Assembly (NCBI GenBank): GCA_965662335.1
Contig: CBFIGQ010000047.1
Coordinates: 13,131 to 77,130 of the forward strand
From: Minisyncoccia bacterium
GTDB lineage: Bacteria; Patescibacteriota; Minisyncoccia; Phycocordibacterales; UBA9973
DNA: 64,000 nt
Direction: 5' to 3'
Shown: one piece after another, positions 56,270-58,067 of the stretch
Layout of the letters: each line of letters begins with the position of its first letter
How positions within the stretch are numbered: position 1 is the stretch's first letter
The notes under the pieces: model-generated
The model's input: the letters and a program-made list of their open reading frames with translations, nothing else
What the model was told of the DNA's origin: nothing
Database searches by the model: none
Translations under genes and position numbers: made by a program

Positions 56270-57880
56270 TTAAGAAGAGTTTGATCCTAGCTCAGGATGA
56301 ACGCTGGCGGCGTGGATAAGGCATGCAAGTCGAACGGACCTTGCCCTTTGGATCGATAAAGTAACGCCTAGTAGCAATACAAAGCGAAGCGATATTTTGA
56401 AAAAGGGCGCTGGTTAGTGGCAAACGAGGTAGTAACACGTAGGTATTTCCCCCAAAGTCGCGAACAACTCACCGAAAGGTGAGCTAATACGCGATGGTCT
56501 CTCCGGAGTAAAGATTTATCGCTTTGGGAAAAGCCTGTGGGATATCAGGTAGTTGGTAGGGTAATGGCCTACCAAGCCGATGACGTCTAGAGGAGCTGAG
56601 AGGCTGACCCTCACCGATGGGACTGAGACACGGCCCATACACCTACGGGTGGCTGCAGTCGAGAATCTTCCACAATGGACGAAAGTCTGATGGAGCGACG
56701 CCGCGTGATTGATGAAGTGGTTCGCCACGTAAAGATCTTTTATGAGGGATGAAGTTTATTGACAGTACCTCATGAATAAGGGGCTCCTAACTCTGTGCCA
56801 GCAGGAGCGGTAATACAGAGGCCCCGAGCGTTATCCGGAATTATTGGGCGTAAAGGGTGTGTAGGTGGCGTGATTAGTCGTTTGTGAAATCTTGGGGCTC
56901 AACCTCAAAGACGCGGGCGAAACGGTCATGCTTGAGTAAGTGAGAGGTAAGCGGAACTCAAGGTGTAGGGGTGAAATCCGTTGATATCTTGGGGAACACC
57001 AAAAGCGAAGGCAGCTTACTGGCACTTTACTGACACTGAAACACGAAAGCGTGGGTAGCGAATGGGATTAGATACCCCAGTAGTCCACGCCCTAAACGAT
57101 CTCAACTAGCTTTACGGAGTATCGACCCTCTGTGAGGCGAAGCTAACGCGTTAAGTTGAGCGCCTGGGAAGTACGGCCGCAAGGCTAAAACTCAAAGGAA
57201 TAGACGGGGACTCGCACAAGCGGTGGATTATGTGGTTTAATTCGTAGGTAAACGAAGAACCTTACCCAGATTTGAAACCCTACTGAAAGCTCTCGGAAAC
57301 GAGAGCCCTCGCAAGACAGTAGGGCAGGTGATGCATGGCCGTCGTCAGCTCGTGGTTTGAACTGTTCCCTTAAGTGGGCTAACGAGCGCAACCCTCGTCG
57401 TCTGTTATACGTGTCAGGCGAGACCGCCCAGCCCCAAGATCATATACGGGTGTTGTGTGGAGAATCAAAGATTTATCTTCGGTTCTCCACACAGCATCTG
57501 AAAGATGTGATTTTCGGGCTGGGAGGAAGGAGAGGATGACGCCAGGTCAGCATGTCCCTTTGATATCTGGGGCCACACACATAATACAATGGTTATTACA
57601 GAGGGATGCAATGGAGCGATCCGGAGCCAACCCCTAAAGATAGCCCTAGTTCGGATAGGAGTCTGCAACTCGACTCCTTGAAGCTGGAATCGCTAGTAAT
57701 CGCAGGTCAGCCAAACTGCGGTGAATACGTTCTCGAGTCTTGTACTCACCGCCCGTCAATTCAAGGGAGCTGGTAGTACCCGAAGGCTCGGCATAAGCCG
57801 GGACTACGGTAAGATCGGTGACAGGGAATAAGTCGTAACAAGGCACGGCTAGCGGAAGCTGGTCGTGGATTAACTCAAAT
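56270..57880 (+). rRNA. rrs: 16S ribosomal RNA (unlinked from 23S-5S)
   Basis: AGAGTTTGATCCTAGCTCAG start, 515/530 loop GTGCCAGCAGGAGCGGTAATAC, 1390s region ACTCACCGCCCGTCA, helix 45 with GGAA loop. About 80-nt expansion at 57440-57520. 3' tail GATTAACTCAAATT lacks CCTCC. Confidence 0.9.
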
Positions 57881-58067
57881 TGAGATAGTCTCGTATACGT
57901 CATGTATACGGATTGAAACGGTTGACTCATCTTTTTGATGAGAAGGTTGTGGTAAGTGACCTATGTACTTACTCGCTGCCCAAGCGTTAGAAAGGCAAAA
58001 ATCCTTTGCGTGAATCTATAGAGCACGGAAAGGTTAGATCGAGACAATAGAAAGATGGTACTATATC

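Follow-up and report, generated by a model that had tools for sequence, protein, structure and literature searches.

The CCUCC core of the anti-Shine-Dalgarno (aSD) sequence at the 3' end of 16S rRNA is among the most conserved sequences of bacteria and is kept even without Shine-Dalgarno (SD) pairing, as in the Bacteroidia. This retention in the absence of SD use apparently arises because the Era- and YbeY-dependent maturation of 16S rRNA and a few regulatory SDs depend on CCUCC. Here we describe a 16S rRNA gene which lacks this core, together with the start regions of the genes around it, in a 64,000-nt stretch of the genome of a Minisyncoccia bacterium (contig CBFIGQ010000047.1 of assembly GCA_965662335.1; "the window" hereafter means this whole stretch). 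With a probability of roughly 80%, we conclude that the window stems from an aSD-less lineage whose mRNAs carry neither SDs nor a substitute, which would initiate translation by three SD-independent routes and would keep the rRNA tail for maturation.

The loss of the aSD in this lineage has been described before. Tsurumaki, Saito, Tomita & Kanai (2022, RNA 28:1041) found CCUCCU in just 48% of Parcubacteria 16S genes, its absence overlapping the uL1-lacking group of Parcubacteria, and concluded that SD helices do not form in the aSD-less subgroup; aSD loss is otherwise called rare there, with reference to Lim 2012 and Amin 2018 (PMC9297842). The window 16S shows the same phenomenon in the same lineage, and the main result is thus not new: aSD loss is uncommon among bacteria at large, yet in this lineage it is a documented trait. 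The text of that study nowhere contains the word "leaderless", and no analysis of SD usage, promoter geometry or tail-trailer pairing was found in the passages searched (PMC9297842); a literature search for leaderless or SD initiation in Parcubacteria, Patescibacteria or the Candidate Phyla Radiation (CPR) found nothing else relevant. The present analysis adds confirmation of the trait in another genome, a depletion of SDs without a compensating motif and, as leads rather than proofs, the first positional evidence found in the group for promoters of leaderless mRNAs and for a tail-trailer hairpin which has been retained. Elsewhere, rare cases of aSD alteration or loss are said to have been described by Lim et al. 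in 2012 and Amin et al. in 2018 (cited in PMC9297842) for the small genomes of reduced endosymbionts, whose lineages are unrelated to that of the window.

The "SD-blind" ribosomes of the Bacteroidia, known from Flavobacterium johnsoniae, resemble those of the window in serving genes which are SD-less genome-wide and have unstructured, A-rich starts (PMC13000453). In contrast to the window, in which the sequence itself is gone, the Bacteroidia keep CCUCC and sequester it by bS21, bS18 and bS6; their aSD is needed for the translation of rpsU and for 16S maturation, which is impaired upon ablation of the ASD in F. johnsoniae (PMC13000453). Era recognises GAUCACCUCC via its KH domain, and most CPR lack era (PMC10582724). 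The small-subunit (SSU) rRNA of mammalian mitochondria also has no anti-SD (PMC10582724). These ribosomes are organellar and very different, and they are served by their own Era homologue, ERAL1, which binds helix 45; the likeness to the window is one of analogy, with no homology of the loss. Mammalian mitochondrial mRNAs are leaderless or nearly so. Leaderless mRNAs also abound in Actinobacteria, Deinococcus and haloarchaea (the "group C/D" of GeneMarkS-2), where the distance from the -10 or TATA element to the start codon is fixed and short and AUG is strongly preferred. These prokaryotes keep CCUCC and use SDs for operon-internal genes, whereas the window has neither.

The elements of the 16S locus are the following:

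56269-57880, + strand: full-length 16S rRNA gene (Rfam RF00177, SSU_rRNA_bacteria, model positions 1-1533, 1364.6 bits)
57844-57867, + strand: intact helix 45, CACGGCUAGC-GGAA-GCUGGUCGUG, by direct reading and model alignment
57868-57881, + strand: 16S 3' tail, GAUUAACUCAAAUU (= GATTAACTCAAATT), by direct reading
57881-58033, + strand: structured 3' trailer of the pre-16S RNA, without CCUCC (57881-58030 folds at -43.4 kcal/mol, z -2.9)
56152-56253, + strand: leader arm of the pre-16S leader-trailer helix, a putative RNase III substrate (inverted repeats I1, I2 and I6, 83-92% complementary)
58034-58096, + strand: trailer arm of the same helix, overlapping the promoter and first codons of a DUF192 gene

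The end-to-end match to the Rfam model marks a complete bacterial SSU rRNA gene. In a focused Rfam alignment its 3' end, GGAUUAACUCAAAU, is aligned to the consensus GGAUcACCUCCUUu with full posterior probability, and the positions equivalent to CCUCC (57873-57877) read ACUCA (ACTCA in the DNA). Helix 45, which directly precedes the tail, consists by direct reading of CACGGCTAGC (57844-57853), GGAA (57854-57857) and GCTGGTCGTG (57858-57867); it folds into 10 bp with a GGAA loop, and all 10 pairs are kept across 53 relatives, five of them with compensatory changes. The initial annotation of this DNA had proposed precisely this combination of an intact helix 45 and a CCUCC core replaced by ACUCA, and both parts are borne out. 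It had also named a CCUCC-bearing 3' end lying elsewhere as a result that would speak against it; no CCTCC was found in the first 330 nt 3' of helix 45, which take in the entire trailer. A leader-trailer helix of about 60 bp encloses the gene and pairs 56230-56253 with 58034-58057 (92% complementarity), 56165-56188 with 58062-58085 (83%) and 56152-56164 with 58084-58096 (92%). Such a helix is the usual substrate of RNase III, whose gene rnc lies in the window at 50040-50732 (Pfam). The identical tail is present in three GTDB species, represented by two Candidatus Nomurabacteria metagenome-assembled genomes (MAGs; L025 and L087) and a Paceibacterota MAG (L035), and in three metagenome contigs; the three MAGs are independent assemblies with a recognisably conserved trailer. 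Taken together, the end-to-end match, the leader-trailer helix, the missing downstream CCTCC and the shared tail and trailer confirm that a 16S rRNA which looks functional has lost its aSD core.

A displaced aSD within the trailer was considered as well and is excluded, since L025, L087 and L035 have AAUCCAUU in place of the sole UCCUUU found there (near 58001). The trailer of about 150 nt between the 16S end and the leader-trailer helix contains, in the window and in these three relatives, the conserved blocks ATTGAAACGGTTGA, GTTGTGGTAAG.GAC.TA and CAAAAATCC, separated by covarying hairpins whose stem sequences differ while the pairing is kept in all four species.

The loss is a trait of the whole surrounding lineage and not a peculiarity of one organism. 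Judged by its 16S sequence, the window belongs to an ultrasmall bacterium of the Paceibacteria (Parcubacteria, CPR) which resembles the Nomurabacteria: the best matches listed are a Paceibacterota MAG and two MAGs of Ca. Nomurabacteria, CullarsAll.DT.37 (93.6% over 1084 nt) and SJ346 (94.7% over 489 nt), and the other Paceibacteria-type loci listed are 79-85% identical to the window 16S. This placement within the Parcubacteria is also reflected in a shared, lineage-specific helix 45 beginning with CACGG. When one genome of each GTDB species was scanned for the pattern, at least 120 loci were obtained; all 53 distinct loci listed with the CACGG-type helix, whose labels include Nomura-, Taylor-, Zambryski-, Adler- and Ryanbacteria and Paceibacterota, with some submitted as Saccharibacteria, are without CCUCC. 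By comparison, the 44 other CPR loci listed (among them Magasanik-, Moran-, Uhr-, Falkow-, Peri-, Peregrini- and Berkelbacteria) retain CCUCC or a sequence close to it, and the same is true of all Campylobacterota matches listed. A scan of metagenomes for the exact helix 45 of the window yielded at least 120 further contigs (L126-L245) with 114 distinct tails, and CCUCC occurs in none of those listed. In the pooled set, CCUCC is found in 0 of 163 distinct tails listed, the consensus of which is G-A-(U/A)-(U/C)-A-A-U-U-C-(A/C)-A-(A/U)-U-U-G-A-A. One metagenome contig with the exact helix 45 carries a near-canonical tail, GATCACCTTCTTTCT (GAUCACCUUCUUUCU, CCUUC), and may represent an intermediate, or a case of retention, within an otherwise aSD-less group. 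Regarding the reported overlap with uL1 loss, rplJ-rplL (17633-18527) stand in the window with no rplK-rplA upstream and no rpoB downstream, and an L1 domain was not found in the open reading frames (ORFs) scanned within these 64 kb of the genome; this isolation is consistent with the reported link but is no proof of it.

The genes of the window are SD-less as well. About 50 genes were called by a greedy longest-ORF procedure, which gives approximate starts, within the 64 kb available. Many were identified with Pfam, including ftsK, rplJ, rplL, ftsW/rodA, secD, secF, lemA, a UvrD-type helicase, gyrB, a class II aminoacyl-tRNA synthetase, nusB, rnc, smc, a Mur ligase, nrdB-like and nrdA genes; RecA was identified from a domain table. 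SD motifs were counted from -20 to -4 upstream of the starts (4-mers GGAG, GAGG and AGGA), with coding regions as controls. GGAGG-type 5-mers precede 0 of 50 genes, compared with 6% of coding controls, and the 4-mers are depleted upstream (4% versus 13%), as is G (14% versus 23%), the upstream regions being G-poor and A/T-rich. The same pipeline applied to 50 kb of Escherichia coli K-12 returned the 4-mers in 37% of upstream regions versus 9% of controls and the 5-mers in 24% versus 2%, and is thus able to detect SDs where they exist. In a liberal test which accepted any candidate start within the first 40 codons, SDs were found for 12 of 52 window genes and 22 of 41 E. coli genes. Seventeen listed genes, among them recA, ftsK, rplJ, rplL, secD/F, gyrB, rnc, smc and nrdA/B, have no GGAG, GAGG or AGGA in the 30 nt before the start; most of them are Pfam-identified, and in some the profile begins at the N-terminus. 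With neither a CCUCC at the 16S end nor an upstream SD enrichment, the window shows no sign of canonical SD-led initiation, in agreement with the earlier claim that its genes are essentially SD-less. That claim had singled out one AGAGGAG string (4598-4604) as the only SD-like sequence, sequestered in a hairpin: the string does lie in a strong hairpin, but it is not the only one, as GTAGAGGTGAAG before the ATG at 37032 illustrates, and such strings are no commoner than expected by chance. Across all called genes, T occupies position -1 before 60% of start codons, and G accounts for just 10-15% over positions -20 to -1.

In place of SDs, the start regions show a promoter geometry typical of leaderless transcripts. 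We scored -10-like hexamers as TANNNT and defined spacing as the number of nucleotides between the end of the hexamer and the start codon. At spacing 6 the hexamer is found in eight window genes, against a background of 1.66 per position (P=3e-4), and all eight start with ATG. In aSD-less relatives the same spacing holds for 26 of 240 genes (background 6.55, P=8e-9); 23 of these 26 start with ATG and 13 have an extended -10 (TGn), which is expected in 1 of 16. The E. coli control returned one such gene (background 0.59, P 0.44). The 20 nt preceding the start are enriched in -10-like k-mers: for the window these are CTATA, ACTAT and TGCTA, and for the relatives GGTAT, TATAA and GTATA. At the level of promoter sequence, both a -10 at a fixed distance from the start and a strong AUG preference, the hallmarks of leaderless mRNAs, are thereby present. 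Examples from the window, all at spacing 6, are the following:

36447-36474, + strand: promoter TTGTCA-16-TATACT before lemA (ATG at 36481; leaderless geometry)
35248-35275, + strand: promoter TTTACA-16-TACAGT before the gene of a CAP-domain protein (ATG at 35282; leaderless geometry)
42293-42301, + strand: extended -10 TGCTATACT (ATG at 42308)
9955-9960, + strand: -10-like TACTAT before a glycosyltransferase gene (ATG at 9967)
48143-48148, - strand: -10-like TACTAT before the gene of a class II aminoacyl-tRNA synthetase (ATG at 48136)

With the -10 ending 6 nt before the ATG, transcription would start at the A of the start codon, and the first of the three proposed routes would accordingly consist of leaderless mRNAs, used by many of the genes which head a transcription unit. 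As a side observation, a TANNNT immediately followed by the start codon (spacing 0) is likewise common in the aSD-less relatives (19 of 240 genes). The second route would rely on short, A/U-rich and weakly structured leaders: windows of 40 nt centred on the starts fold at -3.98 kcal/mol with 33% GC, compared with -5.93 kcal/mol and 45% GC within genes (P=1.6e-6), and the genes at 38426, 48220 and 50812 have promoters 16-37 nt upstream of A-rich, SD-free leaders. The third route would be termination-reinitiation coupling within operons whose genes overlap or abut; of the 38 same-strand junctions, 13 are overlaps or gaps of at most 6 nt, tight enough for translational coupling. The initial annotation had anticipated leaderless or A-rich initiation, an expectation supported by the spacing-6 peak, the full promoters and the weakly structured starts. 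As the mRNAs have neither SDs nor a motif complementary to the tail, start-codon selection would therefore proceed without rRNA-mRNA pairing.

The former aSD region has not been set free by this change. Across the 163 tails listed, U is conserved at position 8 (98%) and C at position 9 (80%), counted from the G after helix 45 (columns 7 and 8 when numbered from zero), and the tail is thus not drifting freely. In the precursor, the tail could form the following element:

57868-57890, + strand: tail-trailer hairpin of the precursor, GAUUA.CUCA-AAU-UGAG.UAGUC

The whole window tail pairs here with the first nucleotides of the trailer (minimum free energy -7.3 kcal/mol over 57866-57895, z -2.3 to -3.1), in the same position in which the aSD of other CPR is paired with an SD-like stretch of the trailer. 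In aSD-bearing CPR this pairing occurs in 39 of 44 loci versus 8.7 expected (e.g., CUCCUU-UCU-AGGGAG), and Peribacteria show compensating changes (UUCCUU with AGGGAA; GCCUU with GAGGC). Several Peribacteria and Peregrinibacteria tails carry the variant aSD cores CUUCC, UCUCC or CGCC (L016, L068, L069, L086, L007, L020, L081, L062), and their trailer partners change to match (GGGAA, GGGAG, GAGGC); the hairpin covaries there even though the aSD is kept. Among the aSD-less tails, a 4-bp stem is found in the register of the former aSD in 37%, compared with 6-8% in neighbouring registers (partner permutation, 0-1 of 2000), with at least five covarying arm types: UUCA/UGAA, CUCA/UGAG, UUCC/GGAA, GUCA/UGAC and CUCU/AGAG. 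These register-anchored counts and permutations replaced RNAalifold, which on ungapped MAFFT alignments of helix 45 and tail recovered helix 45 only, because variation in loop length misaligns the mini-hairpin. Thermodynamic z-scores back the hairpin in the clade of the window and in aSD-bearing CPR, and not over all aSD-less tails. Given the conservation of the tail and its pairing with the trailer, the remaining constraint is probably the maturation of the 16S 3' end, and we infer that the hairpin is a precursor-level maturation element which was inherited from the aSD:trailer hairpin and still constrains the tail. The stronger statement that an entire class of CPR has dropped rRNA-mRNA pairing and turned to leaderless and coupled initiation, with the former anti-SD surviving only as the 5' arm of a covarying trailer hairpin, is tentative and we consider it doubtful in this full form.

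Several points weigh against our reading as a whole. The leaderless geometry is found in just eight of 51 genes (14 of 51 at spacings 5-9), about 15-27%, and leaderless initiation is therefore not the sole route. The total of sigma-70-like promoter matches (37 versus 34) is not above that of shuffles, and only the positions of the matches are therefore informative. Starts were taken from a crude longest-ORF caller over 64 kb, and where transcription begins and where the mature 16S rRNA ends are predictions. The hairpin is marginal outside the clade of the window, with a mean folding z of about 0 across aSD-less tails, and the covariation effect is small (3.12 versus 2.92 pairs of 4, uncorrected for phylogeny).

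The alternative which survives best differs in emphasis: initiation would occur mainly on leadered mRNAs with A/U-rich, unstructured 5' untranslated regions, by standby binding or with the assistance of bS1, and truly leaderless mRNAs would be a minority. The low number of genes with the exact spacing, the good promoters upstream of 38426, 48220 and 50812 and the weakly folded, G-poor start regions all agree with it. It has difficulty with the sharp, one-position peak at spacing 6, the TGn extension and the near-exclusive ATG, for which it is difficult to account without many transcripts that begin at the start codon. We therefore hold it to be a serious possibility, if not the expected one; the leadered and leaderless routes are not mutually exclusive.

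Neutral decay is unlikely, though by a smaller measure than the two explanations that follow it. Here the tail would be drifting after its function was lost, and the hairpin would be a relic or a chance A/U-rich palindrome with no role. The mean folding z near 0 fits this explanation, as does the absence of the hairpin from many relatives, i.e., the GAUCAAUUAAAUUU subgroup; a 4-bp stem in 31 of 53 tails, where shuffles predict 19.5, is also compatible with it. Drift would not account for strong positional conservation among lineages with just about 80% 16S identity, for pairing confined to a single register with at least five compensatory arm types, for the strength of the hairpin in the window's own clade or for a homologous aSD:trailer hairpin in most other CPR.

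A co-evolved alternative SD, in which the new tail (...AACUCAAAU) would pair with an upstream motif such as UUGAGU or UUGAA, could explain why the tail is conserved rather than random and thus seems to have some function. The initial annotation had suggested computing duplex energies against the actual tail; for the window genes, duplexes with GAUUAACUCAAAU are weaker upstream (-1.36 kcal/mol) than in coding controls (-2.24 kcal/mol). The tail-complementary k-mers TTGAG, TGAGT, GAGTT and TTGAA are not enriched close to the starts, either among the window genes or in a set of 240 genes from relatives. A new SD matching the actual tail is rejected on both measures, and we give this explanation very little credence. 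An artefact, i.e., a pseudogene, a chimeric assembly or a true mature end elsewhere with CCUCC, is the least credible of all: the source is a metagenome assembly and CPR rRNA genes carry insertions, two of them in the window 16S, but the full-length match, the certainty of the tail alignment, the CCTCC-free downstream region, the intact leader-trailer helix, the same tail and trailer in independent assemblies and the uniform lack of CCUCC in related tails leave it hardly any room.

With respect to the order of events, aSD-bearing CPR show no SD enrichment (12% versus 11%) in a small sample of 140 genes beside rRNA operons, which includes Magasanik-, Moran-, Uhr- and Falkowbacteria (loci L006, L014, L023, L029, L032 and others), and they share the spacing-6 peak of -10 elements (13 versus 4.4 expected). 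SD-independent initiation may therefore predate the loss of the aSD. As Era is gone in most CPR, little would be left to hold CCUCC in place; low SD use across the CPR and the loss of Era in most of them would together have removed the selection which keeps it.

A free-standing lineage without CCUCC is a natural experiment on the purpose of the aSD. If the hairpin has the role proposed above, the aSD:trailer hairpin of CPR, and plausibly of many bacteria, would be a maturation or quality-control element separable from SD recognition, and the lineage would be a natural "aSD knockout" for asking why CCUCC is almost universal. For annotation, the trait is a warning that gene callers which score SDs will misplace starts here, and the geometry from -10 to ATG is the better start model.

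A further promoter-like element lies at the downstream border of the pre-16S region:

58056-58064, + strand: extended -10 TGGTACTAT, ending 6 nt before the GTG at 58071 of the DUF192 gene (Pfam)

The trailer arm of the leader-trailer helix covers this element as well as the first DUF192 codons (start at 58068 or 58071), and processing of the rRNA and expression of the DUF192 gene may therefore be coupled. The rRNA genes of the window are unlinked, with 23S-5S at 22301-26149 and 16S at 56269-57880 on the same strand and 30 kb between them. The 23S rRNA measures 3692 nt versus 2925 nt for the model, which corresponds to about 750 nt of insertions, and the 16S gene has an insertion of 57 nt near 56340-56400 as well as a hairpin which is enlarged by about 100 nt at 57424-57526.

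The AGAGGAG string mentioned above belongs to a 445-nt non-coding gap (4450-4894). A permissive Rfam search of 4440-4900 for a known RNA family returned as best hit a chance-level Glutamine-II match (E=0.36), which was rejected. The gap contains a strong hairpin (4562-4626, -28.3 kcal/mol, z -3.5) which pairs GAGGAG with CACCUCC, and an extended -10-like TGGTACTAT at 4563-4571; the element is possibly a small RNA or the long leader of the gene at 4895, which encodes a peptidoglycan (PG)-binding domain.

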